A stretch of DNA of 64,000 bases, taken from a virus. Taxonomy: Duplodnaviria > Caudoviricetes. Shown here piece after piece: positions 3,336 through 46,879 of this stretch. The stretch lies in the IMG/VR virus record IMGVR_UViG_3300021091_000011. The stretch is one strand, 5' to 3'. Position 1 is the stretch's first letter; each line of letters begins with the position of its first letter. Position numbers and translations under genes: made by a program. The notes under the pieces are model-generated. The model was not told the origin of the DNA. It saw only the letters and a list, made by a program, of their open reading frames with translations, and made no database searches.

Positions 3336-4103
3336 TCAGGCCGGAACGCCAGGCTCTCGCCACTTGCCCGAAGTGATCTCACCCTCGGAGCCGTCCCATT
3401 CGCCGCCGAGGATAATCGCCGTACCGCCGATTCTGGCCCTGCCAAAGCATCTGGCTTCGCCTCTAACCAAGGCACTCTCGTACACCTTGGCGTTGCCGTA
3501 CACCTCGGCGTCGTCCCACACCAAGGCGTTGCCGAACACTTGGGCATTGCCGTACACCTTGGCGTTGCCGTCCACATGGGCTATGCCATACACATAAGCT
3601 CTGTCATACACCTCGGCTTTGCCTCTCACCTCGGCGTTGCCGTACACCACGGCATTGCCGTACACCTGGGCGTCGCCGCCCACAATGGCGTTGTCGGACA
3701 CATTGGCGTCGCCGTACACCTTGGCGTTGCCGTACACCTTGGCGTCGTCCCACACCCAGGCTTCGTCGTACACCTTGGCGTTGCCTTTCACATCGGCTTT
3801 GCCGTACACCTGGGCGTCGTCGGACACCACGGCATTGCCGTACACCTGGGCGTCGTCGGACACCACGGCATTGCCGTACACCTTGGCGTCGCCCTTCACC
3901 AAGGCGTCGCCGAACACCTTGGCGTTTCCGGTCACAATGGCATTATCAAAGATGTGCTTCCCAGGGATGTTTACATCAACAGAAGCCGACCTGCTCAGAC
4001 CCTGAAGTCCAACAAGAATAGCCTTTCTCTCGGACGAACCGACGGGCAGGCTAGAAGCCAACTTGATCAGAGCAGAACGGTCGCTTGAACTCAACTTACG
4101 CAT
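3336..4103 (-). CDS. Tagged hexapeptide-repeat protein (VYGNAK-type left-handed beta-helix)
   Basis: About 30 [VI]YG[ND]AxV hexads after the shared ~30-aa N-terminal tag. Confidence 0.9.
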   Translation of the reverse strand: MRKLSSSDRSALIKLASSLPVGSSERKAILVGLQGLSRSASVDVNIPGKHIFDNAIVTGNAKVFGDALVKGDAKVYGNAVVSDDAQVYGNAVVSDDAQVYGKADVKGNAKVYDEAWVWDDAKVYGNAKVYGDANVSDNAIVGGDAQVYGNAVVYGNAEVRGKAEVYDRAYVYGIAHVDGNAKVYGNAQVFGNALVWDDAEVYGNAKVYESALVRGEARCFGRARIGGTAIILGGEWDGSEGEITSGKWREPGVPA

Positions 4104-4140
4104 GGGGGGTCAAACCTTCTTGTGTTCTAGGCTAGGGGAC

Positions 4141-5451
4141 TCAGGCGGGAACGTCAGGGGCTTCCCACTTACCTGAAGTGATTTCGCCTTCGGAGCCGTC
4201 CCATTCGCCGCCGAGGATAATCGCCGTACCGCCGATGCGGGCGTCTCCGTATATCTCGGCGCGACCGTACACCTTGGCGTTGCCGTATATCTCGGCGTCG
4301 TCGTACACCATGGCAAGGCCATACACCTCGGCCCTGTCGTACACCCTGCCGCTAATCACCTTGGCGCCGCCGTACACCTGGGCGTCGTCGGACACCACGG
4401 CTTTGCCGTACACCTCGGCGCCGCCGTACACCTGGGCGTCTCCGTAAACTTCGGCGTTGTCGTACACATGGGCGTTGTCGTACACAATGGCTTTGCCGTA
4501 CACCTTGGCTTCGTCCCTCACCTGGGCGCCGCCGGACACCTTGGCGTTGTCGTACACCTTGGCCTTGCCCTTCACCTTGGCGTCGTCGGACACCTTGGCG
4601 TTGCCGGACACCTCGGCGTCTTCGTACACCCGAGCGTCGCTAAACACCGAGGCTTTGCCGTACACCTCGGCGCTGCCGTACACCTTGGCTTTGCCGTACA
4701 CCTGGGCGTTGTCGTACACATGGGCGTTGTCGTACACAATGGCTTCGTCCCTCACCTGGGCGCCGCCGGACACCTTGGCGTTGTCGTACACCTTGGCCTT
4801 GCCCTTCACCTTGGCGTTGCCGGACACCTTGGCGTTGCCGGACACCTCGGCGTCTTCGGACACCTTGGCGGCGTTGAAGATATGCTTTCCAGGAATGTTG
4901 TAATTTCCCGAAGCCTTCTTGCTTGAACTCTGAAGTCTAACAAGAATCGCCTTTCTCTCGGTAGAACCGACGGGAAGGCTAGAGGCCAAGCGAATCAACG
5001 CAGAACGGTCAGAGGCGGTAAGTTTACGCGAGGCCATTTTCTTAGCTCCATCTTCAAGATTCGTGAAACCTGAAAAGTCAACCATGTAAGTAGTTCCGTT
5101 GGGAAGCACGATCACGTCGCCCACGGACATACTCGTATGTCCGGTTTTTGAAATCGCGGGCATGGTGTTAGCCTCGCCGTAAGGCGACCAAACTTCACCC
5201 TGCATCATATTGAAGATTTCGCTCAGGTTCGTCTCGTCGACGAGCCCGATGCGTGTATGCGTATTTTCCAAATCAGCGAGAACGGCAGATAAGTCCAAGC
5301 CGCGCGTGCCACGGCTGAACTTGGAAAACAGACCACGATTGTAGTAGAGGATTTGGGTGCGGCCTCGACCGTAACGATCATCACCCGTGACACCACCTGC
5401 GCCTCTCAGGGTGTTGTAACCATTAAAGCCGCCGTCCGAAAAATAGTTCAT
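4141..5451 (-). CDS. Multidomain protein: YodL-like N-domain, internal tag, long hexapeptide-repeat beta-helix
   Basis: Probable start MNYFSDGG at 5451; HTSMSVGDV motif, then SDRSALIRLASSLPVGS tag, then about 40 hexads. Confidence 0.85.
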   Translation of the reverse strand: MNYFSDGGFNGYNTLRGAGGVTGDDRYGRGRTQILYYNRGLFSKFSRGTRGLDLSAVLADLENTHTRIGLVDETNLSEIFNMMQGEVWSPYGEANTMPAISKTGHTSMSVGDVIVLPNGTTYMVDFSGFTNLEDGAKKMASRKLTASDRSALIRLASSLPVGSTERKAILVRLQSSSKKASGNYNIPGKHIFNAAKVSEDAEVSGNAKVSGNAKVKGKAKVYDNAKVSGGAQVRDEAIVYDNAHVYDNAQVYGKAKVYGSAEVYGKASVFSDARVYEDAEVSGNAKVSDDAKVKGKAKVYDNAKVSGGAQVRDEAKVYGKAIVYDNAHVYDNAEVYGDAQVYGGAEVYGKAVVSDDAQVYGGAKVISGRVYDRAEVYGLAMVYDDAEIYGNAKVYGRAEIYGDARIGGTAIILGGEWDGSEGEITSGKWEAPDVPA

Positions 5452-5520
5452 GGGTAATCCCACTTCGTTGAAGGGTCCCCCAAGCCCTAATGATAGCGAT
5501 ACTATCGAAAGGTACAGGTT

Positions 5521-6807
5521 ATGACCGACAAGCCGATCCCTTACACGCTCGCGCAAAACCCTGCACCGAATCCGGCTAATCAAGGCCAAGCCTATCAGCA
5601 GGACAAATCGGCGTTGGTTCAACGCATCATGGCCGCTTTCAGGTCCGTGCTGCCTTCTAACTACGTCGCGGCAACCAACGGCCCTTGGTACTCGTTGCAG
5701 TTTCAAGCCATGGCCGAGCAGTTGGCCGAGATTCAGATTAACGCCAGCGAACTCGCCACGGATTGCGATTGGGATTTCACGCGCTCTGATTTTTTGTGGG
5801 ACTTGCTCGGCGGCGTCGTGTTCCCGAACTCGTCCTCGGGCATCCCTTACATAAACGGCGATGTTGACTATCGGACGTTCCTGCGTCGAATGGTCGAGTT
5901 ACTATTGCAAGGCGCGACCAAAGCCTCGATTCAAGGCGGCATCGAAGCCTTAAACCCGAACGTCACCGCCTATGTGCTCGAAAGATACCTGCAAACGCCG
6001 CCTCGTGACCCGAACGGCGCGTACACGATTGCAGATCAGTTTGCGTTAGACATTCTAATCGACGCCGGAAACTCGTTCCCCGACAATCCGGCGATCTTAC
6101 AAGCCAACATCGAACTCGTACTGCGTGCGCTAAAGCCCGCCCATGTGCTTTGTTCGTATTCGACGCTCTTTCGAGATACTTTCCCGACGCCCGAAGATAA
6201 CGGCGATGCGTTTTCGTGGGACGTTGAGCCGTATTACTACGACGACACTCGCAAGTATTGTCTCGGTGCTAAAGAAATCAGCGGCATCAGCGGCGCGTTC
6301 TTAGCGCGTAGGGATTACTTCTCGGACCCGAGCGTGTCCTTCTCGTCCATTCCGTCCGGCGCGTTGCTTATGATCGGCACGGACCAATACCGTGTTCGCA
6401 GTACGCGGGCATTGCTTACAGGTGCCGATGCGGTCGCAAGGGCGTACACGACATCGCCCTCTGGACTTTCGGGCATGGTCGTCGCTCTCAATGCGACTGA
6501 TTTATACGATGCCGCTCAAGATTGGGGCGCAAGCGCAGTCGAAGGCGAAGTGATTACGATTTTGACGGGGCCGAACTCGGGCGCGTCGTATCGACTTGAG
6601 ACGGTGCTCGGTTCCGACGGTGGGCCTTTGGGCGAGGCCGGATTGTCCGGCAATCGCGTTCGATTGGCACCAACGATCCTCGTGCTGAATCGTCGAGCGT
6701 CGGCTGCTGCGTCTGGTTTGACGTACACGGTCACGGTGGACCGTTTAGGTCAACAGCCCGTGCGTGAAGTCTTGGCCGAAGACGTCGCTATTCAGTTTTG
6801 GTTATAG
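5521..6807 (+). CDS. Putative baseplate wedge subunit (P2 gpI/T4 gp7-like)
   Basis: 428 aa; GDVDYRTFLRRMVELLLQGATKASI and LKPAH signatures typical of myovirus wedge proteins. Confidence 0.7.
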   Translation: MTDKPIPYTLAQNPAPNPANQGQAYQQDKSALVQRIMAAFRSVLPSNYVAATNGPWYSLQFQAMAEQLAEIQINASELATDCDWDFTRSDFLWDLLGGVVFPNSSSGIPYINGDVDYRTFLRRMVELLLQGATKASIQGGIEALNPNVTAYVLERYLQTPPRDPNGAYTIADQFALDILIDAGNSFPDNPAILQANIELVLRALKPAHVLCSYSTLFRDTFPTPEDNGDAFSWDVEPYYYDDTRKYCLGAKEISGISGAFLARRDYFSDPSVSFSSIPSGALLMIGTDQYRVRSTRALLTGADAVARAYTTSPSGLSGMVVALNATDLYDAAQDWGASAVEGEVITILTGPNSGASYRLETVLGSDGGPLGEAGLSGNRVRLAPTILVLNRRASAAASGLTYTVTVDRLGQQPVREVLAEDVAIQFWL

Positions 6808-7201
6808 CCCACGGAGCTTCCGTGAGTACGGAGATTCCGTAGTCGTCCTGCAAGATACGCGAGCACTCGCTCACGGCTTCGTCTCGGGTCGTGAACGGAC
6901 CAATCTCCATGATTGAATCCGCGTCCATCAAGACCGCCTGAAAGAACGACGGGTCAGACCTGTATATACGAGCGACGGGCCGATTCGACCCGACCGACTT
7001 TAGCGCGATGGCAAGCGCATAAGGGTTGCTCTCGTACTCCGCGTACAAATCAATATCGACGATGAACGCGGCGTCGCCATTGTCGTAAATGGGTGGCGGG
7101 TAAAAAGAAGAAGGTTCCGCATGGAACAAAGCCCGCTCGACGCAAATGCGATTCAGCGGGTCAGCCAGCATCGCCTTTACTATCTTGTACCTTTCGGTCA
7201 C
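6788..7201 (-). CDS. Hypothetical protein
   Basis: 137-aa ORF with protein-like composition in the early block. Confidence 0.65.
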   Translation of the reverse strand: MTERYKIVKAMLADPLNRICVERALFHAEPSSFYPPPIYDNGDAAFIVDIDLYAEYESNPYALAIALKSVGSNRPVARIYRSDPSFFQAVLMDADSIMEIGPFTTRDEAVSECSRILQDDYGISVLTEAPWAITKTE

Positions 7202-7553
7202 GCAATTCTCCGAACTTTGCTTCTAGCATTTTAAGCCCCATACGCCTCACACGATACCCCAAAATCTCATCGTTGTCTCTATCGTTGTAGTAAAGGGCTT
7301 CAGCCAAGCAGTTAGCGAGTTCTTTTCGCGTCGCCTCAAGTACGGCGTTTCCAATCTCGTCTAATTCTTCCTCGGTGATCTTCGATAGCAACTGAAGCGA
7401 AAGCGAATCGTTGTCAATCGCGGCTTGCCTTATCGCCTCGCGCACGCTTTCAAACGATTCCGCGTAAAGTCCGGAAACGCGGTCGTACTCGTCTACGCAT
7501 CCCGGACAAACAAGGTTAGAGATAGATAGTAACCACTTCGCTGACGTTGCCAT
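7161..7553 (-). CDS. Hypothetical protein
   Basis: Open frame, start uncertain (overlaps both neighbours by about 40 nt). Confidence 0.5.
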   Translation of the reverse strand: MATSAKWLLSISNLVCPGCVDEYDRVSGLYAESFESVREAIRQAAIDNDSLSLQLLSKITEEELDEIGNAVLEATRKELANCLAEALYYNDRDNDEILGYRVRRMGLKMLEAKFGELRDRKVQDSKGDAG

Positions 7554-7674
7554 CGGATTCGACCTCGGGTTCATCCTCGCCGATGACGATCACACGGCGA
7601 GGCTCCCTCTCTTGCTTCTTTACCTCCACAGGGGGTGGTGGCGGTGGTAGCGGTAGTTGAAGATCGTTACTCAT
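7516..7674 (-). CDS. Small Pro-rich hypothetical protein
   Basis: ATG with GGAAGGGGG RBS; MSNDLQLPLPPPPPP... Confidence 0.55.
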   Translation of the reverse strand: MSNDLQLPLPPPPPPVEVKKQEREPRRVIVIGEDEPEVESDGNVSEVVTIYL

Positions 7675-7794
7675 AGATTCCCCCCTTCCATCTGAGAATT
7701 GCGTTTGCGAAGCGTTCTTCGCGCTCGATCTCGGTCCTGCGTTTGTGGCGCAGTACCCATATAATAGTTCCAATAGCCATTATTACGCCGACCG

Positions 7795-8220
7795 TCATCC
7801 CGCGTACCCCGCGATACCCTGAATCGACGTGCCGCCGCCGCCGCCGTGCATCCCGTCAAAGCGACCCGCGTTCGGGTTCGCCGTGAACCCGCGCACGGGC
7901 TTATCGAACTCACGGTGCTTCAGCTTGAAGCCGTAGGCCGCGAGTTCGGCCTTGATGTTCGCCACGATCTTTTGCGTCGTCGCGTTCAACACTTGAAGTT
8001 CGAACGCCGTGTATTCCTCACGGTCGTTGTCTGCCAAGTGCTCTGCGAACGCCTCGACCGAAGCAAACTCCGGCTCCTTCGGATTCAGCCCGCCGAAGCG
8101 GACCAGCCCCGTCTGAACAGGCTCGGCGACTTCACGCCGCATCGCACGCCGCTCGGCGCGCTCTTCGGCAATCTGGTCTTCACGGTCTTGATTGTGGGGG
8201 ACGAAACCGATGCGGCGCAT
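7795..8220 (-). CDS. Hypothetical early protein
   Basis: MRRIGFVPHNQ... with AGGAG RBS abutting the early element at 8231. Confidence 0.8.
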   Translation of the reverse strand: MRRIGFVPHNQDREDQIAEERAERRAMRREVAEPVQTGLVRFGGLNPKEPEFASVEAFAEHLADNDREEYTAFELQVLNATTQKIVANIKAELAAYGFKLKHREFDKPVRGFTANPNAGRFDGMHGGGGGTSIQGIAGYAG

Positions 8221-8230
8221 GGCAGGCTCC

Positions 8231-8273
8231 TTACACCATCCAAACGGTCGGCAACCGCTTGGAAAACCGAAAA
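8231..8273 (-). promoter_or_regulatory. Early promoter-like half element (tandem with 8297)
   Basis: TTACACCATCCAAACGGT-N12-GAAAACCGAAAA. Confidence 0.8.
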
Positions 8274-8296
8274 TCGGCGGGAGCACCATGCCCCGC

Positions 8297-8393: not shown

Positions 8394-8411
8394 GCACAAC
8401 CTCAAGGAGCG

Positions 8412-8927: not shown

Positions 8928-8942
8928 GGCTTCTTGATTGCG

Positions 8943-9698
8943 TCAGACGTAATCTTCGCCCTCAAGCGGGCGCACAGCAAAGACGGCTCGATAATCTCGG
9001 GCGGTCTTGCCATGAATCGAACGCACGGACTTGATCACGCCCTCGTGACGAGTCCCATCGGGCTTCTTGCCGCCTGCGTTCCCCTCATACGTCTCAAACT
9101 TGCCGTCCGGATTTAACGCCGTCGCCGCCAAAGTGACGTGGGCACCGTCGGCATCGCCCTCCGGCCCAATCACGACGATGTCGCCAGGCTGAATACCCGA
9201 CAGCGGGATTCGACGTGCGTTACCCTTCGACCAAACCCAAAGTCGATACGTCGAAGCGATGTGCTTCTTGCGGAGCAGAGGCTTCAGGCCGACCTGCCCA
9301 TAGCACCACGCCGCAAATGCACCGCACCACTCGAACATTCCGTTCTTCGTGTACGGAATGTTCGGTCTCGCAGTAGGCCCAATCTCCGCAGTAGACCAAC
9401 CTAAGCCGGACGCGCCACGGATATACTCGTCGATGCGAGCCGCGCCGTTTTTCGGGCCACCGGAAACAGGCTCCGTCACGCCGCGCATCCACTCGGTATG
9501 CGCGACCTGAATCAGCCGATCCATGCGCGACTGATGAGCGTCGAGCGCCGGAGGCTCGCAAACAAGAGCCTTCTCGTCTACGGGTTCGTCCGGATGGCCG
9601 TTGAGTTTCGCCATCTGGACTTCACGGCCCATACGACGCATCTCGGTCGCAACGGTTTCCGTCAGGGCTTCAAGGGCTAGGGAGATCAGAGGGTTCAA
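8943..9698 (-). CDS. CHAP-domain amidase/peptidase
   Basis: EWCGAFAAWCY (catalytic Cys), HVTLA (His) and TYEGN motifs; TTG start with GGAG. Confidence 0.8.
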   Translation of the reverse strand: MNPLISLALEALTETVATEMRRMGREVQMAKLNGHPDEPVDEKALVCEPPALDAHQSRMDRLIQVAHTEWMRGVTEPVSGGPKNGAARIDEYIRGASGLGWSTAEIGPTARPNIPYTKNGMFEWCGAFAAWCYGQVGLKPLLRKKHIASTYRLWVWSKGNARRIPLSGIQPGDIVVIGPEGDADGAHVTLAATALNPDGKFETYEGNAGGKKPDGTRHEGVIKSVRSIHGKTARDYRAVFAVRPLEGEDYV

Positions 9699-10152
9699 TG
9701 TGAGGTCTCCTGCTGCGTGGGATGTATTTCTCGTAGAAAGAATGGGTCAGCGTGCCGACCAAGTTCTTTCTACCAGCGTGGCAAACAGCCGGATTATCGG
9801 AAGGACCGCAGTAGAAGTAAGCGTCATGTGCCCATGCCGGAACAGGCAGGGAGTCGAAAGTAGCGAGTATGCCGAGTGTCAGGTGATGGGGCTTCCAGAA
9901 TCGAGGCGATTCAGGGCACTTGGTCGCGTAAGCGTTGGGGTAACTCAGCGCGTCAAAGAGCGAATAGCCAAACTTCTTAGAGCGATTCACGGCGGTCTGC
10001 AAAACCACCGCGCCGTCTTGGGAGTCGATGCCGGACTCGCAACGGACTACGTTGGTTGCGAGTTTGATAGTCTTGATCGTGTCAAGCGATTTCGGGATTT
10101 CGGGGATGATGTGGGCTTTTGCTGCCAAAACAAATGCAATGAAAGAGAGCAT
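9670..10152 (-). CDS. Putative SleB/Hydrolase_2-like cell wall hydrolase with N-terminal hydrophobic segment
   Basis: LATNVVRCESG...GAVVLQTAVNR pattern resembles the SleB catalytic helix (Glu). Confidence 0.55.
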   Translation of the reverse strand: MLSFIAFVLAAKAHIIPEIPKSLDTIKTIKLATNVVRCESGIDSQDGAVVLQTAVNRSKKFGYSLFDALSYPNAYATKCPESPRFWKPHHLTLGILATFDSLPVPAWAHDAYFYCGPSDNPAVCHAGRKNLVGTLTHSFYEKYIPRSRRPHIEPSDLPSP

Positions 10153-39711: not shown

Positions 39712-39730
39712 ACGATACCCTGCGAGCAGC

Positions 39731-40084
39731 GTGTATTGGATCTACGTCATAGAATCGTTAGTGCCTCGTTACGCGAATAACGGACGTAGATTGCGTGGGT
39801 TTTTCTACGTCGGCATGACGACGCACCCCAACCGCAGATTACGCCAGCACAACGGCGAAATCTTGGGCGGGGGTCGTTATACTGCGAAGCATCGACCGTG
39901 GGTGCTCCGCACCGTGTACGGACCTTATTCTTCTAGGTCCGAAGCACTCAAAGCCGAGTACGCACTCAAGCATAGTAAGCGAGGCGAGGCCCGACTGAGT
40001 TGGACGCCTAATGATTCGGTTTGGTGCCGAACAGCGTATCAAATTGCGGAAGGGGAGGGATTCGAACCCTCGGTGAGGGATTAG
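39731..40084 (+). CDS. GIY-YIG nuclease (Slx1-like)
   Basis: WIYV...FYVGMT..NRRLRQHNG..GGGRYT..RPW..EALKAE; start placed at GTG 39731. Confidence 0.85.
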   Translation: MYWIYVIESLVPRYANNGRRLRGFFYVGMTTHPNRRLRQHNGEILGGGRYTAKHRPWVLRTVYGPYSSRSEALKAEYALKHSKRGEARLSWTPNDSVWCRTAYQIAEGEGFEPSVRD

Positions 40085-40134
40085 CCCACACACGATTTCC
40101 AATCGTGCGCCTTAAACCACTCGGCCACCCTTCC
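40047..40134 (-). tRNA. trnS: tRNA-Ser(GGA)
   Basis: Full cloverleaf with long variable arm; CACGA-TTGGAAA-TCGTG; no encoded CCA. Confidence 0.95.
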
Positions 40135-40169
40135 GTATCATGCACTCTGATTTCAGAGTGCGCTCAAAA

Positions 40170-41024
40170 TCAACGCTTTACGAGCGATAACAGGGTTCTG
40201 CGCTCATTAGAACCGACAGGCATCGTAGACGCCAGCCGAATCAGAGAACTTCTCTGCGAAGAGGTCACTCTAAAAGAAGCCTGCTTGTACGGCGCAGTCC
40301 AGTCAACTGAACCGCTGCTAAGTGCCTTCACCGCAGGCTCTACGTGGCCCTTATCAGGGTCGATCACAGGCATTTCTTTGCGGTCAGGAGCCCAACTCGG
40401 CACATTGCGTTTCATTCCCTTGACGTTGTTTGCCATTATGATGATTCCGGTTTCAACTGAACCGAAGTTTTTTTCGAGAATTGCCTTGACGTCATCCGCA
40501 GAGATCGGAAACTCACCCGGAACGCCGTTGTTGGCATACCCTTCAAGCATATCCGCGACGTTCTTGGGCGTGAACTTCGAGATTGAACCCTCGCCTTTCT
40601 TGCCGTTTCTCACGTTGAACTTACCTACGGTGAGGATGTTCAATACGCGAAGAAGGTCTTTACCCGGAAGAGCCGCCTTGTAGCCTTCAACCTTGGCCGA
40701 ATTGCCGCCTGCGATGATCGCAGCCGCCCAACGATGATGACCATCCATGATGAAGTTGTCAGCAGAGATCAGCGCGTTCAAATCGCCGCCGATCTTGCCC
40801 TTAGCGAGCATACCCAAAGCCATGCCGACAGCCTTCCCTAAGACCATCGTGGTCTGGGATGGCTTCAGCGCAGCAGCAACGGAGCTAACCTTGCTTACTG
40901 AGATTTTATCCGAACTGCCGTCGCCGGACTCGCACATCAAGTGAGCGATAGACGGGTCTACTCCTGAGAGCGTTCCGGCTTCCTCAAACTGCTTCTCGAA
41001 AACACCATCTGCCTTACGCCGCAT
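40170..41024 (-). CDS. ParB/Srx-like domain protein with C-terminal cargo tag
   Basis: ISADNFIMDGHHRWAA motif; ends KQA|SFRVTSSQRSSLIRLASTMPVGSNERR. Confidence 0.85.
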   Translation of the reverse strand: MRRKADGVFEKQFEEAGTLSGVDPSIAHLMCESGDGSSDKISVSKVSSVAAALKPSQTTMVLGKAVGMALGMLAKGKIGGDLNALISADNFIMDGHHRWAAAIIAGGNSAKVEGYKAALPGKDLLRVLNILTVGKFNVRNGKKGEGSISKFTPKNVADMLEGYANNGVPGEFPISADDVKAILEKNFGSVETGIIIMANNVKGMKRNVPSWAPDRKEMPVIDPDKGHVEPAVKALSSGSVDWTAPYKQASFRVTSSQRSSLIRLASTMPVGSNERRTLLSLVKR

Positions 41025-41164
41025 AATCTACCTCTTCTAGTTAGAGCATCTCGTAACGGCTGATAGATAAATGTGATAACGGCGATTTCACACCAAAGAT
41101 TTCTTGATCTTACCTTCCAAAAACCCCTATGCCTTTTTTACAACCCTCACGGGCAAAAGGCTTA

Positions 41165-41287
41165 CGCCGAAGGGGAAGACCGACGCCACCTGAAACTGCG
41201 TCGTGTGAACACGCAAGACCCGACAGACGCAGTTACTACCTGCCGATCAGGACGGAGGTTGGATTTCCGGGAGGAGGCAGTCGGGCC
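41165..41287 (-). ncRNA. Candidate pseudoknotted structured RNA
   Basis: Crossing helices GGCCCGAC/GUCGGGUC and AACUGCGUC/GACGCAGUU plus inner hairpins; G-U pair favours the minus strand. Confidence 0.35.
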
Positions 41288-41446
41288 TCATTCTGAGGTT
41301 TCATCAATCGGCTCTTGCTCGTTCTTCTTGGAATCGGAAGAACCGCAGGAAGGGCAGACTCGCGCCTGCTTACCTGATTTTTTGATGATCGTGCGGTATT
41401 TAGTCCCACACGCAGAACAAGTGACTGACACTACGGCTTTACCCAT
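41288..41446 (-). CDS. Small zinc-ribbon protein
   Basis: MGKAVVSVTCSACG...VCPSCGS. Confidence 0.7.
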   Translation of the reverse strand: MGKAVVSVTCSACGTKYRTIIKKSGKQARVCPSCGSSDSKKNEQEPIDETSE

Positions 41447-41473
41447 ATCGTAACATACCAAACAAAATGAAAA

Positions 41474-41536
41474 TAGTCCTTGTCGGACTTGAACCAGCAC
41501 TTCCTCGCGGGAATCTGCCTGTTTCGCCAAGAGGCC
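41474..41536 (-). pseudogene. Highly degenerate tRNA-like remnant lacking the anticodon arm
   Basis: TGGCGAAACAGGCAGA D-arm-like, CCGCGAGG variable-arm-like and GGTTCAAGTCC T-loop; weak acceptor stem. Confidence 0.35.
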
Positions 41537-41540
41537 ATCG

Positions 41541-41612
41541 TGGGTCGTTTGGGATTCGAACCCAAAACCAGCGGATTAAAAGTCCGATGCGCTACCGTTG
41601 CGCCAACGACCC
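41541..41612 (-). tRNA. trnK: tRNA-Lys(TTT)
   Basis: Cloverleaf with CGGA-CTTTTAA-TCCG; no CCA. Confidence 0.95.
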
Positions 41613-41619
41613 TAAACAT

Positions 41620-41680
41620 TGGGGAACTACCTAGATAGGCGAAATCAAAATCCGCAGTCCTGCCGTTAGACGATTCCCCA
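41620..41680 (-). pseudogene. tRNA-Gln(TTG) with deleted T-loop
   Basis: Intact acceptor, D and anticodon arms; CTAGGT-AG where CTAGGTTCGAATCCTAG is expected (9 nt missing). Confidence 0.85.
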
Positions 41681-41686
41681 TTGTAG

Positions 41687-41759
41687 TAGCCGCAGAGGGA
41701 TTCGAACCCCCGACCGTCGCTATGTAAAAGCGATGCTCTACCAACTGCGCTATGCGGCT
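41687..41759 (-). tRNA. trnV: tRNA-Val(TAC)
   Basis: TCGCT-TTTACAT-AGCGA anticodon arm; no CCA. Confidence 0.92.
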
Positions 41760-41766
41760 ATGTTTG

Positions 41767-42076
41767 TACCCGAAGTCGGATTCGAACCGACACGCCCTTG
41801 CGAGCGGAGGATTTTCTTACCACTATGGTTTTCACCACCAAATCACGTTGTTTGTGGTCTGGACTTTGCCTTCACCCTCGCCATCTAGCCTCGGCTAGAT
41901 TCGTTAGGGCGGCTACCGTCAAGTCTCTACACCTTCCCCATTTATCATGGGGCTTGGCTCGGCGTTGGGTCGCTTTCGCAGGCCGTTCACCGAATTTGGC
42001 AGCATTCACTCAAGGGGCTTTCCCCCTTGGTGCTCAATCAATAAGTCCTCTGTGGCTACCCTTTCACCATTCGGGC
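41767..42076 (-). tRNA. trnL: tRNA-Leu(TAA) interrupted by a group I intron (exons 42043-42076 and 41767-41815)
   Basis: Exon 1 ends GAGGACTT and exon 2 starts AAAATCCTC; the spliced arm is GAGGA-CTTAAAA-TCCTC. Confidence 0.93.
41816..42042 (-). ncRNA. Group I intron (IC3, trnL-UAA type), 227 nt, no ORF
   Basis: Follows U, ends in G; P (AAATTCGG), Q (CGCCGAGCCAA), R (GTAGAGACTTGACGG) and S (AAGGCAAAGTCC) elements. Confidence 0.92.
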
Positions 42077-42085
42077 AATCTCAAG

Positions 42086-42158
42086 TGCCCCCAACGGGAT
42101 TTGAACCCGTGTAACCAACGTGAAAGGCTGGCGTCCTAGGCCACTAGACGATGGGGAC
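42086..42158 (-). tRNA. trnE: tRNA-Glu(TTC)
   Basis: CCAGC-CTTTCAC-GTTGG; no CCA. Confidence 0.93.
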
Positions 42159-42162
42159 TAAA

Positions 42163-42420
42163 TCAAAGCCAATAATCAAAGATCGATTCCGCGAAATAAT
42201 CGTCCGGCTTGACCGACTCGATCTGCAAGTCACCATTCGGACTTGCATAACGCACGATGCGCTTTACCAACCAACGCAGGTAATCAGGCCCCCCTGCAAT
42301 CACCCTCGTTTCGGAAAAGCCAACGAGTGCTTGCTCAAGCCCTTCGGTTGATTGCGGTAAAAAATCTTCTAGGTGCTTTACGCCTAGCGCGGTTTTATTT
42401 TCGTGATCGAGTAGCCACAT
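42163..42420 (-). CDS. Small hypothetical protein inside the tRNA cluster
   Basis: MWLLDHENK... 85 aa fills the gap between tRNA-Arg and tRNA-Glu. Confidence 0.65.
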   Translation of the reverse strand: MWLLDHENKTALGVKHLEDFLPQSTEGLEQALVGFSETRVIAGGPDYLRWLVKRIVRYASPNGDLQIESVKPDDYFAESIFDYWL

Positions 42421-42453
42421 GGTACGGCTACTCAAAAAATCAGATAAACGCGG

Positions 42454-42526
42454 CACCACCGGAGGGAATCGAACCCCCATCGACAGGCTTAGAAGGCCCG
42501 CGCCTTATCCGTTAGACCACGGTGGC
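42454..42526 (-). tRNA. trnR: tRNA-Arg(TCT)
   Basis: CGGGC-CTTCTAA-GCCTG; followed by CCG, not CCA. Confidence 0.93.
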
Positions 42527-42532
42527 AGATAA

Positions 42533-42606
42533 TGGACCCCCTCGGGCTTGAACCGAGAACCAACCGGGTATGAGCCGGACGCGCTAACCACTTGCGCCAG
42601 AGGTCC
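42533..42606 (-). tRNA. tRNA with CAT anticodon (elongator Met or Ile2)
   Basis: CCGG-CTCATAC-CCGG; G1-C72 paired, so not an initiator. Confidence 0.9.
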
Positions 42607-42611
42607 AAAAG

Positions 42612-42694
42612 TACGAGCAAAGGGACTTGAACCCCCACGCCCTTGCGGGCACCGGAACCTAAATCCAGCGTGTCTACCGTTCCACCATGCTCGC
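42612..42694 (-). tRNA. trnL: tRNA-Leu(TAG)
   Basis: CTGGA-TTTAGGT-TCCGG with long variable arm; no CCA. Confidence 0.95.
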
Positions 42695-42701
42695 TTATTT
42701 G

Positions 42702-42779
42702 TGGACGAGGGAGGACTCGAACCTCCGTGTGATATGCCTGATTTACAGTCAGGTGCAGTCGCCGCTGTGCCACTCGTCC
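42702..42779 (-). tRNA. trnY: tRNA-Tyr(GTA)
   Basis: CCTGA-CTGTAAA-TCAGG; variable region about 10 nt; no CCA. Confidence 0.92.
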
Positions 42780-42869
42780 AAGAGGCAGACTTCCTCTAAC
42801 TCGGTCTGCCAGCGAGTTCGGTTCCCATGGCAGGTAGAAAAGGAGAAAACCCCGCCACGGGCATCGAGA

Positions 42870-43073
42870 CTACTTGCGCTGAACGAAGTCGTACATTTCT
42901 TCGGCCAGCAAGCGAACCTGCGTGAAGGTCGGGAACGGAACTGCCAGCGGCGGGCGGTTTTCATACTGCGCCCGCGAGTTCTCGTTCTCCTGAGCCGCGT
43001 GATACTGCTCCACGAGCATATTCCGCGCCTCTTGGAGAATCCCCCAACGGATTTCGTAACCGGACTGAGACAT
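42870..43073 (-). CDS. Small hypothetical protein
   Basis: MSQSGYEIRWGILQEARNML... with AGGGAG RBS. Confidence 0.75.
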   Translation of the reverse strand: MSQSGYEIRWGILQEARNMLVEQYHAAQENENSRAQYENRPPLAVPFPTFTQVRLLAEEMYDFVQRK

Positions 43074-43094
43074 AAACCAGACTCCCTGTGTGTG

Positions 43095-43350
43095 TGGTGA
43101 AAGCAAATACCGCTGGTGTGCAACCACCTGAGATCGCTCTAGCGTCCTATAACGATCTCCCCTGCGCGGCGACAAGGACCCCGATAACGGTGAGGTAACC
43201 GGAAGGAGTTTTCGCACCCCTACAAACGCACGGATTCTCGTCCCATGACTACGCTCAAGGACTTAACGAGCCCTGAGAATCGTCCGCATATAACGTCGCG
43301 GCCCCGCCGTTTTCTACCTGACGGTACAGGTTTGAGTGGTTGCACACTCA
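43095..43350 (-). ncRNA. Candidate ~250-nt structured RNA
   Basis: Perfect 12-bp long-range helix (43116-43127 with 43336-43347) enclosing several hairpins; no credible ORF. Confidence 0.5.
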
Positions 43351-43353
43351 AGG

Positions 43354-43426
43354 CTCCGACAGCAGGACTCGAACCTGCGACCAGGCGGTTAACAGCCGCC
43401 TGCTCTACCAACTGAGCTATGTCGGA
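43354..43426 (-). tRNA. trnN: tRNA-Asn(GTT)
   Basis: GGCGG-CTGTTAA-CCGCC; followed by CCT, not CCA. Confidence 0.95.
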
Positions 43427-43429
43427 AAA

Positions 43430-44125
43430 AGCGAGGGCGTTCCACCCTCTAGAGCACGATGCCCTTACCACGGCGTCGATCCGCAGTAAGCCCCTGCGCG
43501 TACCTACGCAGAAGACTGAAAGGCTCAAGGCGGGAGCTTACGGTTATCGCTAACCTTAGACCCACTCCACTTTGCTTACCTGCGCCTAACAGGTGCTGCT
43601 GGACTTGTCACTCCAGCGGGAGGTCACTACTTTCCGTCCACCGCCATCCAACCAGAGACATTCCCTGATCGAACGCACGAACTCGGCCAGCAACGTACCC
43701 AATTCGTCCCGCCCTTTTTAACCTCGGCGTCAGGTTCCCCACCACGGTTGGACTGCTACCGTCGGTCTATTGACCGTCGCTCGGTGTCCACTTCGTCCGA
43801 ACGATCCCCGAGCACGGGGACTTACGATCACGGCTTAGAGGCCCGACGAGTTATCATCGGGCTTACCGCGACAGGCTTGTAAGCCGTAGTGAGGATAATA
43901 GGGTCTCCCGCGTCGAGACTTAGCCCGATGCGGTCGTATATTCTGCGACCTAGACCCCTAGTCGCTACATCCGTGATAATCTGAGCCAAATCCCGAACAC
44001 GGCTTCGGGGCTCAGTTCGGGTAGCAGGTCGGCACCAACCAGCCCCCGAAATCGTTTTCAATGAACGTGACGGCTTACTTTACCCAAGCCGTATTGAACG
44101 TCAACCCCTTAGTTGACGGAAACTA
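43430..44125 (-). ncRNA. Large ornate ncRNA, probably GOLLD-like
   Basis: About 690 nt, no credible ORF, packed with hairpins, between tRNAs; 3' half has GGUACGUUGCU, AGUGACCUC, GUUAGGCGCA, GUGGAGUGG, UUGAGCCUUU and GCGUAGGUAC, which I recall from GOLLD alignments (not verified by search). Confidence 0.7.
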
Positions 44126-44127
44126 AG

Positions 44128-44206
44128 CACGCGCAGGAGGAATCGAACCTCCATGCCCTTGCGGGCACCGGAAAATCCGGCGTGTCTGCCATTCCACCAT
44201 GCGCGG
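44128..44206 (-). pseudogene. Leu-type tRNA with anticodon loop collapsed to 3 nt
   Basis: Close paralog of tRNA-Leu(TAG) at 42612, but CCGGA-TTT-TCCGG (4 nt missing) and a C1/U72 mismatch. Confidence 0.85.
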
Positions 44207-44232
44207 ATAACGTGTTGGTCAAATGATTGCGC

Positions 44233-44321
44233 TTACACCATCCAAACGGTTCGGGGCGGCGAGGAAAACCGAAAAAGTGAACGACGATTTCCGGTTTTTT
44301 CGGGGCGGTCTAACCGTTTGG
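44233..44321. promoter_or_regulatory. Early promoter cassette with truncated right half; its left half faces the ncRNA/tRNA operon
   Basis: 89 bp identical to 44604-44692. Confidence 0.85.
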
Positions 44322-44330
44322 GAGGATCGT

Positions 44331-44588
44331 TCACGGCTCGTTAACGACCACCTTGTCGCCCGAAGGCGTAAGGAGGGTGACCGCCGCGATGAAGTACCCG
44401 CAGCACTCCGCGCCGCAGGACTGCTCTGCTGTCTCGACGTCGACGACTTGGTAGCCGTCGACAACGGGCGACGAGATGTTACCCTCGTCATCCTCATACT
44501 CGTAACTCTCGAAAAACGACTTGCCATCTGCCGCCCACGCGGATTCGATTTTCTTGACGATGATATCGAGGTTCTTGAGGTTGTTCAT
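44331..44588 (-). CDS. Small acidic early protein
   Basis: 85 aa, GGAAAGGA RBS, flanked by duplicated cassettes. Confidence 0.8.
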   Translation of the reverse strand: MNNLKNLDIIVKKIESAWAADGKSFFESYEYEDDEGNISSPVVDGYQVVDVETAEQSCGAECCGYFIAAVTLLTPSGDKVVVNEP

Positions 44589-44603
44589 GGTTTATCCTTT
44601 CCC

Positions 44604-44701
44604 TTACACCATCCAAACGGTTCGGGGCGGCGAGGAAAACCGAAAAAGTGAACGACGATTTCCGGTTTTTTCGGGGCGGTCTAACCGTTTGGATGGTGTA
44701 A
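44604..44701. promoter_or_regulatory. Bidirectional early promoter cassette (98 bp)
   Basis: Two back-to-back half elements between divergent genes. Confidence 0.85.
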
Positions 44702-44724
44702 AGACCCCGAAAGGAGCAGCGCAC

Positions 44725-45093
44725 ATGGGCTTTCGCTCGGAGATTCGCCGGATGCGTGACAAGCAGGACGCGCTCGCGCACGTCGAGCGCGTCGGCAAGG
44801 GCGTGCGTGCGCTGATCGACACGAGCGACCCTTCGCGGGTAGAGCGCGCCGAAGGCATCATGGATCGGATCAATCCGATTCGTGATAGCCTGACCGAAGT
44901 GGCGGCGGCTGTTGCGGGCACGAATCCGAATGACGGCTACATGGTCGTTATCCGCTTCGGGCAAATCGCGCGTAGTGCGTGTGAGTGCCCCGACTTTGGA
45001 CGCACGGGTCCATGCAAACACGTCCTCGCCGTCGCGGAGTCATGGCTTGAGCAAGTCGCTCGCCCGACTTGGCGGGAATTGCGGCGCGGCTAA
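44725..45093 (+). CDS. SWIM zinc-finger early protein
   Basis: CECPDFGRTGPCKHVLAV; AAGGAG RBS. Confidence 0.85.
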   Translation: MGFRSEIRRMRDKQDALAHVERVGKGVRALIDTSDPSRVERAEGIMDRINPIRDSLTEVAAAVAGTNPNDGYMVVIRFGQIARSACECPDFGRTGPCKHVLAVAESWLEQVARPTWRELRRG

Positions 45094-45103
45094 TTCGGCT
45101 ATA
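45090..45103 (+). promoter_or_regulatory. Putative late promoter CTAATTCGGCTATA
   Basis: One mismatch to the late motif, 15 nt upstream of ATG 45119. Confidence 0.5.
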
Positions 45104-45118
45104 CGAAAGTGACGTATC

Positions 45119-45304
45119 ATGGATACGTTCAGCGAAATCGAAAAGATCAAGCGGGCAATCAGGTCATCGCACGCGGTCATGTTCAACGTGAACACGATTG
45201 ACGTTGATTTGGATGATGACCACCAGCCCGTGTTCAAGCCTCGCAATCGCGTGGTAAAATCGAATGAACCCACCGAAAAGGACGAATCCTCGCGCAAGAC
45301 GTGA
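45119..45304 (+). CDS. Small hypothetical protein
   Basis: 61-aa ORF after the late motif. Confidence 0.55.
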   Translation: MDTFSEIEKIKRAIRSSHAVMFNVNTIDVDLDDDHQPVFKPRNRVVKSNEPTEKDESSRKT

Positions 45305-45322
45305 TTCGTTCTAGCAACTGCT

Positions 45323-45841
45323 ATGAACGTACTTGTGCTCAACTTCGTCTATCGACCGATTGCCGTGATGTCGTGGCAAGAGGCGATCACGACGGTATAT
45401 AGCGGACGTGCTGAAGTCGTCGAGCACTACGCCGACAGGACGATCAAATCGGCCACGCAAGAATGGCCGATGCCTTGCGTCGTTCGATTCCTGCGTAAAA
45501 AGACCGCACGATGGTTTAAGTGCGAGCCGCGATTCACGCGCAAGAACGTCTGGATTCGGGACAAAGGCGTTTGCCAATACTGCGGCAGGCCCGTATTACT
45601 GCGGCAGTTCACTTTAGATCACGTTTTGCCTCGATCACGCGGCGGCAAAACGGAATGGGGCAACATCGTTGCGGCGTGTGACCCGTGCAATCAAAAGAAA
45701 GAAGCACGGACACCGCAAGAGGCAAAAATGCACCTTCGGAAACCGCCGTTGGCTCCGAAGGTGCTGCCCGTTGTCAACGAATCAAATGACCCTGCACTAA
45801 GCCACGTCATGCCCGATCAATGGCGGGCATACTTGGATTAG
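45323..45841 (+). CDS. HNH endonuclease (McrA/HNH_5-like)
   Basis: VLVLN..Y.P; CQYCG; TLDHVLPRSRGG..EWGNIVAACDPCN. Confidence 0.92.
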   Translation: MNVLVLNFVYRPIAVMSWQEAITTVYSGRAEVVEHYADRTIKSATQEWPMPCVVRFLRKKTARWFKCEPRFTRKNVWIRDKGVCQYCGRPVLLRQFTLDHVLPRSRGGKTEWGNIVAACDPCNQKKEARTPQEAKMHLRKPPLAPKVLPVVNESNDPALSHVMPDQWRAYLD

Positions 45842-46392
45842 CGCAGCCGATACGAAGCGGTCTTGCCAGCAGGCGCTTCTTCCTCGTCGGCAAGCGCAAA
45901 GACCATCTTCTCGAAGTCGCCAGCGTTCATCTTCTTGACGCGCTCTTGCGCCCGCTGGAAATCTTCGGGGCTATCGTACTTGCTACGATCCATGTTTTTG
46001 AGGAACTTAGCCTTACGTTCCTCGGGCGTCATACGCTTCTTGGCGTTCTTGTCCGCGAGGTCTTTAGCCTGATCCTTGAGGTCGTGCATCTCATCATCTT
46101 CAAGATCATGCTCACGGGCGAGAGCCTTCACGCCCTCATTCTTGATCTTCTTGAAGGTCTGCTTCTTGTAAGTTTTGTTTTCTTCGCTATGGCCCGTGTT
46201 CATCACGCGGGCTTCCCATTCTTCTTTCGAAAGGGCAGGCTTACCCTCACGCTTCTTCTTGTCGAGATACTTATTGTAGTCAGGTCTAGCGATGTGCATC
46301 AAACCCGCGATGATCGCACGGCGTAACGAGTCGCCCTGCGGCAAAGTCGAAGCCACGCGCACTAAAGACTTACGCTCTTGATTCGTCACCAT
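45838..46392 (-). CDS. Tagged, highly charged helical protein
   Basis: N-terminal ERKSLVRVASTLPQGDSLRRAII tag; AGGAG RBS before ATG 46392. Confidence 0.8.
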   Translation of the reverse strand: MVTNQERKSLVRVASTLPQGDSLRRAIIAGLMHIARPDYNKYLDKKKREGKPALSKEEWEARVMNTGHSEENKTYKKQTFKKIKNEGVKALAREHDLEDDEMHDLKDQAKDLADKNAKKRMTPEERKAKFLKNMDRSKYDSPEDFQRAQERVKKMNAGDFEKMVFALADEEEAPAGKTASYRLR

Positions 46393-46405
46393 GACCAATC
46401 TCCTA

Positions 46406-46879
46406 TCAATACTCATTGGGGAGCATCACGACAGGACGCTCGCCAGGATTACGGGTGCAGAAAAGTTTGATCGCAGGCAGAGGGAAGTCGGTGTAGGGGA
46501 TTCGCTGCGAAACGAGTTTGGTGCCGTTACCATCTTCGGCCCAAACCGTCGCGCCCGCGCTGCGGCCTGATTTCTTCAAGTGCCACACCTGAAAAGGTTG
46601 AGCGGCGACGCGGCGATTCGTCTGGTGAGACGCGACCACGTCAACGAGCCACCAAGACTGAGCCACTTCGCAAAGGTGTTCCACGCCGGACGTGATTAAG
46701 ACCGGAGGAAACCCGGCCTTGGTAAGACCGCCGCCGCCCGAGAACGTGCGAAGGTCCGACAGTAACTCAGCGGGGTCCACAGGCTCAGAGGCCACGCGAA
46801 GAATCGTCTTTCGGTCTTGGGAACCGACGGGCATCGTCGCGGCCAATCTAATCAGAGCTTTTTTAACGTCAGGCATCAT
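46406..46879 (-). CDS. Tagged DUF6876-like protein
   Basis: Tag KKALIRLAATMPVGSQDRKTIL, then SWWLVDVVASHQ...FQVWHL...DGN...IPYTDFPL...VMLPNEY. Confidence 0.8.
   Translation of the reverse strand: MMPDVKKALIRLAATMPVGSQDRKTILRVASEPVDPAELLSDLRTFSGGGGLTKAGFPPVLITSGVEHLCEVAQSWWLVDVVASHQTNRRVAAQPFQVWHLKKSGRSAGATVWAEDGNGTKLVSQRIPYTDFPLPAIKLFCTRNPGERPVVMLPNEY

Follow-up and report, generated by a model that had tools for sequence, protein, structure and literature searches.

We identified a peptide tag of about 30 residues, predicted to form two helices, that occurs five times on the minus strand of a 64-kb window from an uncultured giant phage (the window is the whole stretch of DNA that was analyzed). 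Judging from sequence searches, the tag is a large undescribed family in one clade of huge phages, uncultured and phage-G-like, and modeling indicates that it is a self-contained basic helix-loop-helix docking module. That one shared protein partner reads the tags is well supported. The most likely use of the tag, at a little under an even chance, is to load proteins into the interior of the capsid. This reading draws on context: the place of tagged genes behind the capsid gene, a shared promoter-like motif, the nature of the cargo, and a likeness to the scaffold hairpin of phage P22.

All five copies that the first-pass annotation had quoted are present (Table 1). An HMM built from them and run against the six-frame translation of the window matches those five and nothing else (E = 1e-18 to 5e-18); the next-best match has E = 0.066, so chance is excluded. 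A further, diverged copy had been proposed to start the gene at 46899-47750, but it is not supported as a tag (HMM score about 1; hhalign probability of 1%), and the supposed echo of the tag's LIRLA core in the scaffold repeat is no stronger than noise. The tags were also said to be bounded by KxA or RxA linkers, which is partly real: across 67 aligned tags, K is enriched at position +30 (33 of 67) and A at +32 (25 of 67).

Table 1. Tag copies, tagged genes, head genes, and promoter-like sites in the window.
Feature	Position	Strand	Details
Tag copy 1 (core 30 aa)	4002..4091	-	N-terminal in beta-solenoid protein 3336-4103; HMM E 4e-18
Tag copy 2	4930..5019	-	Internal in 4141-5451; HMM E 5e-18
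Tag copy 3	40176..40265	-	C-terminal in 40170-41024; HMM E 3e-18
Tag copy 4	46297..46386	-	Close to N-terminus of 45838-46416; HMM E 4e-18
Tag copy 5	46787..46876	-	N-terminal in 46406-46888; HMM E 1e-18
Tag + YdcK/bactofilin-type beta-solenoid, 255 aa	3336..4103	-	Pfam B_solenoid_ydck E 7e-21; Bactofilin 8e-08
144-aa N-domain without assigned family, then tag, then beta-solenoid; 436 aa	4141..5451	-	Pfam solenoid E 1e-14
Promoter-like site CGATAGTATCGCTATC, CGGTAG-N5-CTATC variant	5492..5507	-	41 nt before ATG at 5451; PWM score 10.6
Viral family with DGHHRW motif (ParB/Srx-like, weakly supported) + C-terminal tag	40170..41024	-	phrog_2859 E 2e-10
Tag + K/E-rich helical orphan, 192 aa	45838..46416	-	Third gene after capsid gene; ORF listing
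Tag + DUF6876	46406..46888	-	Second gene after capsid gene; Pfam PF21781 E 2e-28
First gene after capsid gene	46899..47750	-	C-terminal half hydrophobic; N-terminal tag unsupported
Major capsid protein, HK97 fold, phage G / Tunturi_5 type	47929..48804	-	Homologues carry PF25209
Scaffold-like acidic repeat protein	49591..51120	-	Between protease and capsid gene; ESKKKAS repeats followed by a basic helix
Head maturation protease, 210-aa C-terminal extension	51123..52559	-	phrog_18299 E 1.5e-14
Promoter-like motif CGGTAGGTATTCTATA	54340..54355	-	Before 53033-54319, the first head-operon gene; only exact instance in window

The five tagged proteins had been described as unrelated. Two of them (3336-4103 and 4141-5451) are paralogous beta-solenoids of the YdcK/bactofilin type, which leaves four cargo classes. 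In the longer solenoid gene, an ATG at 5037 is preceded by GGAG and could also yield a short, N-terminally tagged form of the protein. The DUF6876 assignment is backed by a clear Pfam match. The label "ParB-like" for 40170-41024 came from a DGHHRW motif spotted by eye; this protein has no match in Pfam or in a PDB sequence search, and what speaks for the label is a set of weak Atlas neighbours with ParBc_2/ParB_N (score of 0.84-0.88). The K/E-rich orphan has no family in Pfam or PHROGs.

The consensus of the tag is M-[PS]-[KR]-[TS]-L-TASDR[SK]ALIRLAS[TS]LP[VK]GSxER[KR]AILAGL-KK, and the module covers about 33-37 residues. For residues 1-40 of the protein with copy 1, AF2 predicts a helix-loop-helix, in keeping with the two-helix module that had been proposed: helix 6-18, a loop of five residues, and helix 24-39 (pLDDT 88). 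A tagged protein of 87 residues consists of two tags only, and in its AF2 model each hairpin is confident (pLDDT 85-94) and the linker is disordered. The median net charge of the tag is +4, with four nearly invariant Arg/Lys positions, and the turn (P-x-G-S) has a single Gly. A Foldseek search with the tag model returned nothing at E ≤ 0.001, and the structural matches are generic hairpins: the scaffold hairpin of phage Pa193 (9b40_G) aligns over 36 residues with Z = 5.0 and an rmsd of 2.1, which ties it with many unrelated hairpins. Where two copies share a residue, the fraction of identical codons is close to what codon usage alone would give (observed versus expected: 0.39 versus 0.39, 0.46 versus 0.45, and 0.37 versus 0.40). 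Synonymous sites are thus saturated, and selection therefore acts on the peptide itself. By the same codon comparison, neither gene conversion nor an RNA element accounts for the conservation.

Beyond the window, the tag matches 1,836 protein clusters at E ≤ 1e-3 (1,050 at E ≤ 1e-10). It is present at 28 loci in IMG/VR, and relatives carry 23, 12, 6, 4, and 18 copies. The claim that the tag is portable across otherwise unrelated proteins is supported: in the best 150 of the matching proteins, 131 copies are N-terminal, 76 internal, and 33 C-terminal. In the same set, 76 proteins have two or three copies, and tags within one protein are no more alike (identity of 0.51) than tags in different proteins (0.55). 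The cargo is mostly small orphan proteins; the recognizable classes include ADP-ribosyltransferase, pentapeptide and YdcK solenoids, DUF6876, DUF2958, DUF3846, and Fusellovirus-VP2-like proteins. Since DUF6876 is known without the tag elsewhere, and since untagged homologues also exist for the solenoids and (in one relative) for the ParB-like protein, new cargo has evidently been gained by fusion to the tag, as had been suggested; this is read from sequence comparisons. The earlier statement that no characterized family exists also stands, as no profile in Pfam, PHROGs, PADLOC, or PDB covers the 30-residue module. The matches are not mainly cellular: the tag loci that we retrieved are viral contigs, and two degenerate exact patterns of the tag had zero matches in 185,579 prokaryote genomes. 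We did not find the tag in any cultured phage in GenBank.

Phages that are close to one another in their capsid protein differ in the tag. LR745208.1, with a capsid protein 85% identical to that of the window, has no window-type tag; instead, at least nine of its ORFs carry a sister tag, TLRSKLIRLAHENPALRPHLLPLLKEA, which hhalign relates to the window tag with a probability of 76% (E = 2e-5). The sister tag has the turn E-N-P, without Gly, and prolines in its second helix. The complete genome G009 (capsid protein 88% identical) has neither the window-type nor the LR745208.1-type tag, and at least 16 of its ORFs share an unrelated leader, IRSLE.RIARLEKE. Such lineage-specific variants argue for a protein partner that co-evolves with the tag. 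Because tags differ or are absent where the capsid protein is 85-88% identical, the capsid protein alone cannot set the specificity, and a tag system of this kind is dispensable for this capsid.

Tagged genes recur near the head genes. The capsid protein of the window is also 48% identical to the major head protein of Tunturi_5 and 38% identical to that of phage G, and the protease gene product matches, at 39% identity, a region of Tunturi_5 that carries the annotation head maturation protease gp331. Of the genes that follow the capsid gene in the window, the second and third carry the tag. Among 80 capsid-gene loci, 16 have a window-type tagged gene on the same strand and 200-1,500 nt downstream of the capsid gene, and these genes represent at least five architectures, including charged proteins of 153 and 215 residues that are tagged at both ends. 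The scaffold gene of LR745208.1 is separated from the next head gene by a tagged gene. The tag itself has no significant similarity to the scaffold, the tail of the protease, or the first head-operon protein. A promoter-like motif links some tagged genes to the head operon. The CGATAGTATCGCTATC site in front of the longer solenoid gene is weak on its own, as the PWM at that threshold has 9 matches in the window versus 6.8 expected. In the genomes G001 and G002, CGGTAG-N5-CTAT[CGA] occurs 25 times (G001) and 20 times (G002) versus 2 expected, and it is placed in front of the head operon, of an endolysin-like gene, and of five or six tagged genes per genome. The motif is found at a minority of tagged genes, and its timing class was assigned from few genes; most tagged genes are scattered across the genome on both strands.

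We propose that tagged proteins dock on one lineage-specific partner and co-assemble into the core of the procapsid as it grows, which we hold with slightly less than even confidence. Gene shuffling would have attached the tag to well over a thousand unrelated accessory proteins, and all copies in a genome would be read by a single protein partner specific to that phage lineage. Tagged proteins would be made late, together with the head proteins, and the hairpin would dock on an internal head component, much as the P22 scaffolding protein uses its C-terminal hairpin to bind coat protein. The cargo would then be enclosed in the procapsid, destined for the capsid interior, and would later exit with the DNA, presumably by injection. 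A broader version, which is possible but doubtful, is that phage-G-like huge phages run a natural, programmable system for cargo loading. Lineages with a near-identical capsid protein would use interchangeable address peptides of their own (the window-type hairpin, the LR745208.1-type hairpin, and G009's RIARLEKE helix). Every such peptide would have a receptor inside the head that co-evolves with it, and in this way the phages would package and inject libraries of well over a thousand effector families.

Several other explanations have to be weighed against head loading. The most serious is that the tag docks on a hub outside the head, either a phage complex for replication, transcription, or defence evasion or an abundant host machine, and so concentrates effectors in the infected cell and not in the virion. 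Tagged genes are scattered, and nearly the same capsid protein occurs with different tags or none, as expected of a lineage- or host-specific partner; also, the cargo resembles host-takeover proteins, which could equally act inside the cell. We nevertheless consider this unlikely, because tagged genes are repeatedly met right behind the capsid gene (and, in LR745208.1, inside the head operon), because some share their promoter-like motif with the head operon and the endolysin-like gene, and because proteins with two or three copies would go better with a repetitive lattice than with a single hub. The basic residues of the tag might instead point to a non-specific nucleic-acid-binding hairpin (HhH, SAP/HeH, or half of a ribbon-helix-helix) that tethers proteins to phage or host DNA. 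By eye, the LP-x-G-S turn is HhH-like, multiple copies per protein are common for HhH motifs, and some cargo is DNA-related (the ParB-like nuclease lead and the Fusellovirus-VP2-like proteins). This reading is improbable. Pfam HhH, SAP, and RHH profiles match none of 208 tagged proteins, the search thresholds being E ≤ 0.1 for 6 proteins of the window, E ≤ 0.01 for 58 locus proteins, and E ≤ 0.001 for 150 representatives, and no PDB sequence matches; the conserved G-h-G of HhH is missing, as the window turn has one Gly and the sister turn none; helix 2 of the sister tag carries prolines; and a DNA ligand would leave the genome-wide joint switching of tag type unexplained.

That half of the best 150 proteins have two or three tags, that the 87-residue protein is nothing but two tags, and that the capsid gene is followed by double-tag proteins that are charged and probably disordered could also mean that tags bind each other, with the multiply tagged proteins cross-linking single-tag clients into a network or condensate, inside the head or not. 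Mutual compatibility would account for the uniformity of tags within a genome. But AF2 does not place the two confident hairpins of the two-tag protein relative to each other (pTM 0.36), tags within a protein show no extra likeness, and all tags have the same positive charge, which makes this very unlikely. We give least credence, and very little, to the idea that the tag anchors fibres or decoration proteins on the outer face of the virion, in the manner of the N-terminal anchors that multiple tailspikes have in common. It would fit the two tagged solenoids of the window, for which PHROG families of tail fibres and baseplates give weak matches (E = 2e-5 to 2e-3) and which adjoin conserved genes of possibly structural role. 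Their untagged relatives, however, come from non-structural parts of small temperate phage genomes, with annotations as cytoskeletal or acyltransferase-like; the bulk of the cargo consists of small orphans and of enzymes, for example ADP-ribosyltransferase and DUF6876; and tags are internal and C-terminal as well.

If the tag is a head-loading signal, then the proteins that an abundant clade of uncultured huge phages injects could be recognized from their sequence alone. This injected proteome would comprise at least 1,836 protein clusters, almost all without an assigned function, and would include likely anti-defence and host-takeover proteins that act ahead of any phage gene expression. Head loading would also make the tag a natural counterpart of the engineered P22 scaffold fusion and a source of ready-made orthogonal tags for loading protein cages. 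Whatever the destination, the tag represents a large and so far undescribed docking domain, whose partner should be accessible to pull-down.

Among known systems, dockerin and cohesin offer a similar logic, as many catalytic subunits carry the same small module and dock with it on a shared receptor, and module and receptor co-vary between lineages. That system is extracellular, with a calcium-binding fold and a known receptor, whereas the fold of the tag is unrelated and its receptor putative. Encapsulins have cargo-loading peptides and bacterial microcompartments have encapsulation peptides; both kinds are short and found at one end of the protein, as a single helix or an extended motif. They likewise address unrelated enzymes to the lumen of a shell (which has the HK97 fold in encapsulins), but they serve a cellular organelle, while the tag is viral, is a two-helix hairpin, and is often present in several copies.

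A parallel in biology is the capsid targeting sequence (CTS) of the T4 internal proteins IPI-III and Alt, reportedly described by Mullaney and Black in 1996. Alt is an ADP-ribosyltransferase that is packaged via this sequence. In both cases, a short portable peptide is found on unrelated, fast-changing small proteins of a large myovirus, including an ADP-ribosyltransferase, and the proposed purpose is loading of the prohead and delivery with the DNA. The T4 signal has about 10 residues, is strictly N-terminal, and is cut off by the prohead protease at a defined site; in contrast, the tag is a folded hairpin of 30-37 residues that can be at any position, in up to three copies per protein, and it has no sequence likeness to the CTS. 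Propeptides related to the T4 CTS are reported for SPN3US and other giant phages, on their head proteins (PMC5694885, PMC10052503).

A physical parallel is in P22, whose scaffolding protein binds each coat subunit via a cationic helix-turn-helix of 30 residues (PMC9965877). We detected no homology between the tag and P22-type scaffold hairpins by PDB sequence search or Foldseek. The tag also differs in being on the cargo and not on the scaffold, and a reading of the C-terminus of the window's scaffold shows no hairpin-like sequence there. The P22 hairpin (residues about 268-303) nevertheless shares with the tag, as modeled by AF2 and given its charge, a length of about 30 residues, a cationic character, and two helices joined by a 5-residue turn. 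In P22, one hairpin binds per coat subunit on the shell's inner face, and cargo fused to the hairpin end of the scaffold is loaded into P22 shells (PMC9962691); fusion of the hairpin to foreign proteins suffices for encapsulation.

The window, a portion of the genome of an uncultured huge phage, carries five copies of a peptide of about 30 residues that probably acts as a portable protein-docking module with one shared, lineage-specific partner. The five peptides quoted in the first-pass annotation were all found, on the minus strand, in the genes at 3336-4103, 4141-5451, 40170-41024, 45838-46416, and 46406-46888. A profile of the five copies, run against the six-frame translation of the window, recovered the same five only (E ~1e-18; the next hit had E = 0.066), and a proposed sixth, diverged copy in 46899-47750 was dropped (hhalign probability 1%). 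The five hosts had been described as unrelated, but those at 3336-4103 and 4141-5451 are paralogous beta-solenoids of the YdcK/bactofilin type, so there are four cargo classes rather than five. The identification of the last gene as DUF6876 is secure (E = 2e-28), while the ParB-like label of 40170-41024 is a lead only.

No Pfam, PHROG, PADLOC, or PDB profile spans the tag, and fold searches with it returned only generic hairpins. The consensus is M-[PS]-[KR]-[TS]-L-TASDR[SK]ALIRLAS[TS]LP[VK]GSxER[KR]AILAGL-KK-x-A, with a median net charge of +4, and AF2 models it as a helix, a 5-residue loop, and a second helix (pLDDT 88). In IMG/VR, 28 loci matched the tag pattern, and scans of the whole records of five large viral contigs found 23, 12, 6, 4, and 18 copies. 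When a profile of 65 tags was compared to 1.84 billion representative proteins, 1,836 clusters matched at E ≤ 1e-3 and 1,050 at E ≤ 1e-10. In most copies, the tag begins 4–5 residues past the initiator methionine; among the best 150 proteins there were also 76 internal and 33 C-terminal copies, and 62 of these proteins had two tags and 14 had three. One protein of 87 residues is made up solely of two tags and a linker. A tblastn search with the tag found no match in 50,697 deposited phage genomes, nor did two degenerate exact patterns (sensitive to canonical copies only) match in 185,579 prokaryote genomes. Tunturi_5, a jumbo myovirus of Tunturiibacter and the sole cultured relative, lacks the tag; the paper describing it does not report virion proteomics. 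A literature search did not find the tag motif, or anything on DUF6876 or capsid targeting in huge phages.

We compared tags within one genome at positions with identical residues, and we contrasted the share of identical codons with the prediction from pooled codon usage. Observed and predicted shares were 0.39 and 0.39 in the related viral genome G001, 0.46 and 0.45 in the related genome G002, and 0.37 and 0.40 in the window. Because codon identity is at the level expected from codon usage, the conservation is not explained by gene conversion, by a duplication in the recent past, or by an RNA or DNA element under constraint. The codons indicate that selection is on the amino-acid sequence of the tag, which is constant across many independent contexts, and this constancy points to one common ligand.

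The tag also differs by lineage. The window-type tag is missing from the whole genome of LR745208.1, a 485-kb metagenomic phage; at least nine ORFs there carry a sister tag, M(T)TLRSKLIRLAHENPALRPHLLPLLKEA, at the ORF start or, in one case, internally. Profile-profile comparison of the two types aligned 28 columns (probability 76%, E = 2e-5) and showed a 3-residue deletion in the loop. The sister tag was not found in four genomes with the window-type tag or in Tunturi_5, and both types are present at one capsid-gene locus (L138). Three complete or near-complete relatives, G006 (376 kb), G008, and G009 (312 kb, complete, with terminal repeats), have neither type, and the capsid protein is 88% identical. 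An unbiased search for shared protein ends, which picked up the tag groups already known from G001 and LR745208.1, found a third, different N-terminal leader (IRSLE.RIARLEKE) on at least 16 ORFs of G009. (In fuller form, this leader reads QQIRSLE[MLV]RIARLEKEA, and many of its carriers lie in a tandem array.) Since the capsid protein is nearly constant while the address peptides differ, specificity must depend on more than the capsid protein. The lineage pattern favors a protein that co-evolves with the tag, rather than DNA, as the probable target.

The window's major capsid protein is 85% identical to that of LR745208.1, 48% identical to that of Tunturi_5, and 38% identical to that of Bacillus phage G. 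Its gene is followed by three small genes, of which the second and third are tagged. Coordinates of the head module and of other features are listed in the table.

Head-module genes, promoter-like motifs, and examples of other address peptides. Positions are in the window unless a locus or genome is named.
Feature	Position	Strand	Remark
Head module, first gene	53033-54319	-	start of operon order
Maturation protease	51123-52559	-	phrog_18299; matches Tunturi_5 region annotated gp331
Acidic repeat scaffold	49591-51120	-	after protease
Head-module gene	48823-49494	-	between scaffold and capsid genes
Capsid gene	47929-48804	-	last in head module order
Promoter-like motif, sole exact window copy	54340-54355	-	precedes head operon
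Promoter-like motif, weaker variant	5492-5507	-	precedes 4141-5451
Sister tag example, LR745208.1	L111:18459-18578	-	
Sister tag example, LR745208.1	L109:11835-11954	+	
G009 leader ORFs, examples (L196-L211)	146195-158577; 9021-9932		

Some other features of this stretch are worth recording. At 50052-50187, the scaffold gene has a 136-nt unit (acidic linker, ESKKKAS, and basic helix) that recurs at 53968-54103 with 96% identity, so the first protein of the head operon has two scaffold-type repeats. Just upstream of the head operon are genes for two very large multi-domain proteins: 58657-62769 (-) has a HAD domain and a CCA-adding/polyA-polymerase head domain interrupted by a LAGLIDADG intein, and the 1,136-aa product of 54325-57735 (-) contains the core of a type IB topoisomerase. 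Ten tRNA genes form an array at 40046-44206 (-), and the last of them (44127-44206) has a four-base anticodon call (tccg) and no amino-acid assignment. An intergenic element of ~95 nt has seven copies in the window (1029, 1245, 8224, 8291, 19453, 44227, and 44598) and contains nested inverted repeats (CTTACACCATCCAAACGGTT ... AAAACCGAAAA ... TTTTCGGTTTT ... AACCGTTTGG); candidate identities are a terminator and a small mobile or regulatory element.

Tagged genes recur near the capsid gene. Among 80 capsid-gene loci from IMG/VR, a gene with the window-type tag lies 200–1,500 nt downstream on the same strand in 16, and a gene with the sister type lies 2–4.6 kb downstream in seven. These downstream tagged genes have at least five architectures. 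In several lineages, the product of the first gene past the capsid gene is a charged protein (153 or 215 residues) with a tag at both ends. In LR745208.1, one tagged gene separates the scaffold gene from the next head gene. In all, 46 different genes occupy the first position past the capsid gene; this hypervariable region is a hot spot for variable genes, not a fixed slot for tagged ones. The double-tagged proteins L128:7157-7801 (+), L134:4931-5389 (+), and P0053, encoded directly after the capsid gene, have low-complexity modules in common (CEKLP..M..NCEK and HQF..E.NPNPKGNDKDGDGETNEP), and the second module resembles the calcium-binding D-x-D-G-D-G motif.

A promoter-like motif, CGGTAG-N5-CTAT[CGA], occurs 25–45 nt ahead of start codons, with 25 copies in G001 and 20 in G002 (~2 expected); it is not enriched in LR745208.1. 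Downstream of it in G001 and G002 lie the head operon, homologues of 2307-3275, one gene resembling an endolysin gene and one resembling a helicase gene, and 5–6 tagged genes per genome. This placement fits late co-expression, with the timing class taken from few named genes; Pfam and PHROGs left most of the motif-driven genes unnamed.

Tagged proteins have a median length of 194 residues and a bimodal distribution of isoelectric points. Pfam names few of the cargoes: beta-solenoids, DUF6876, DUF2958, DUF3846, pentapeptide repeats, an ADP-ribosyltransferase exoenzyme domain, and Fusellovirus VP2-like proteins. Small temperate phages have the solenoid without a tag, in regions whose annotation is non-structural; DUF6876 also exists as a stand-alone Pfam family; and the ParB-like homologue is tagged in G001 and untagged in G002. 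Because cargo domains are also found without it, the tag is an add-on that moves between genes.

The first-pass annotation had also proposed that the tag echoes the scaffold repeat, and this did not survive profile tests and reversed-sequence controls. The tag HMM scores the scaffold at ~1, hhalign of the tag with the scaffold N-domain gave a probability of 10%, and an xxRLA helix is missing from half of 38 scaffolds. The C-terminal tail of the protease fared little better (17%), and with an HMM of helix 1 only, neither scaffold nor protease tail rose above six-frame noise in four genomes. A looser regular expression, defined post hoc, matches the scaffold, and the protease at two places. The N-terminus of 53033-54319 looked tag-like by eye, but its hhalign probability was below 1%, equal to reversed controls.

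The proposal that the peptide is an address tag is supported. That it loads cargo into the capsid is plausible, at slightly less than even chances, with a docking partner that we infer. In this mechanism, the tag would dock on the shared, lineage-specific partner and cargo would be placed inside the assembling head. We tentatively favor the head interior as the destination because tagged genes occur in the context of the head operon, some share a motif with it, the cargo looks accessory or effector-like, and the multivalency of the tags suits a repetitive lattice. The scattered locations of tagged genes and the lineage specificity would also fit docking on a hub outside the head, which we consider rather unlikely.

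Other roles for the peptide seem less probable still. Its positive charge would suit nucleic-acid binding, but there are no matches to such families, the sister tag is glycine-free, and the tag type switches in concert; we judge this role improbable. Proteins with several tags could be explained if tags associate with each other, but the model of a natural two-tag protein reached a pTM of just 0.36 and tags of one protein show no excess similarity, which makes self-association quite improbable. As for an external anchor, only the solenoids fit it and their relatives contradict it, so we give it hardly any weight.

Address peptides of this general kind are already known: the T4 capsid-targeting sequence and scaffold hairpins are examples. 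What has not been described so far is this tag family, with its fold of two helices, its freedom of position and copy number, and its variants specific to lineages. Among the closest structural neighbors of the tag is a scaffold hairpin of phage Pa193, but many unrelated hairpins tie with it, so the architecture is compatible and nothing more. The P22 scaffolding protein grips each coat subunit via a 30-residue cationic helix-turn-helix (PMC9965877), and proteins fused to the end that bears this hairpin load into P22 shells (PMC9962691). The P22 hairpin is thus a working precedent for loading by a tag of this type.
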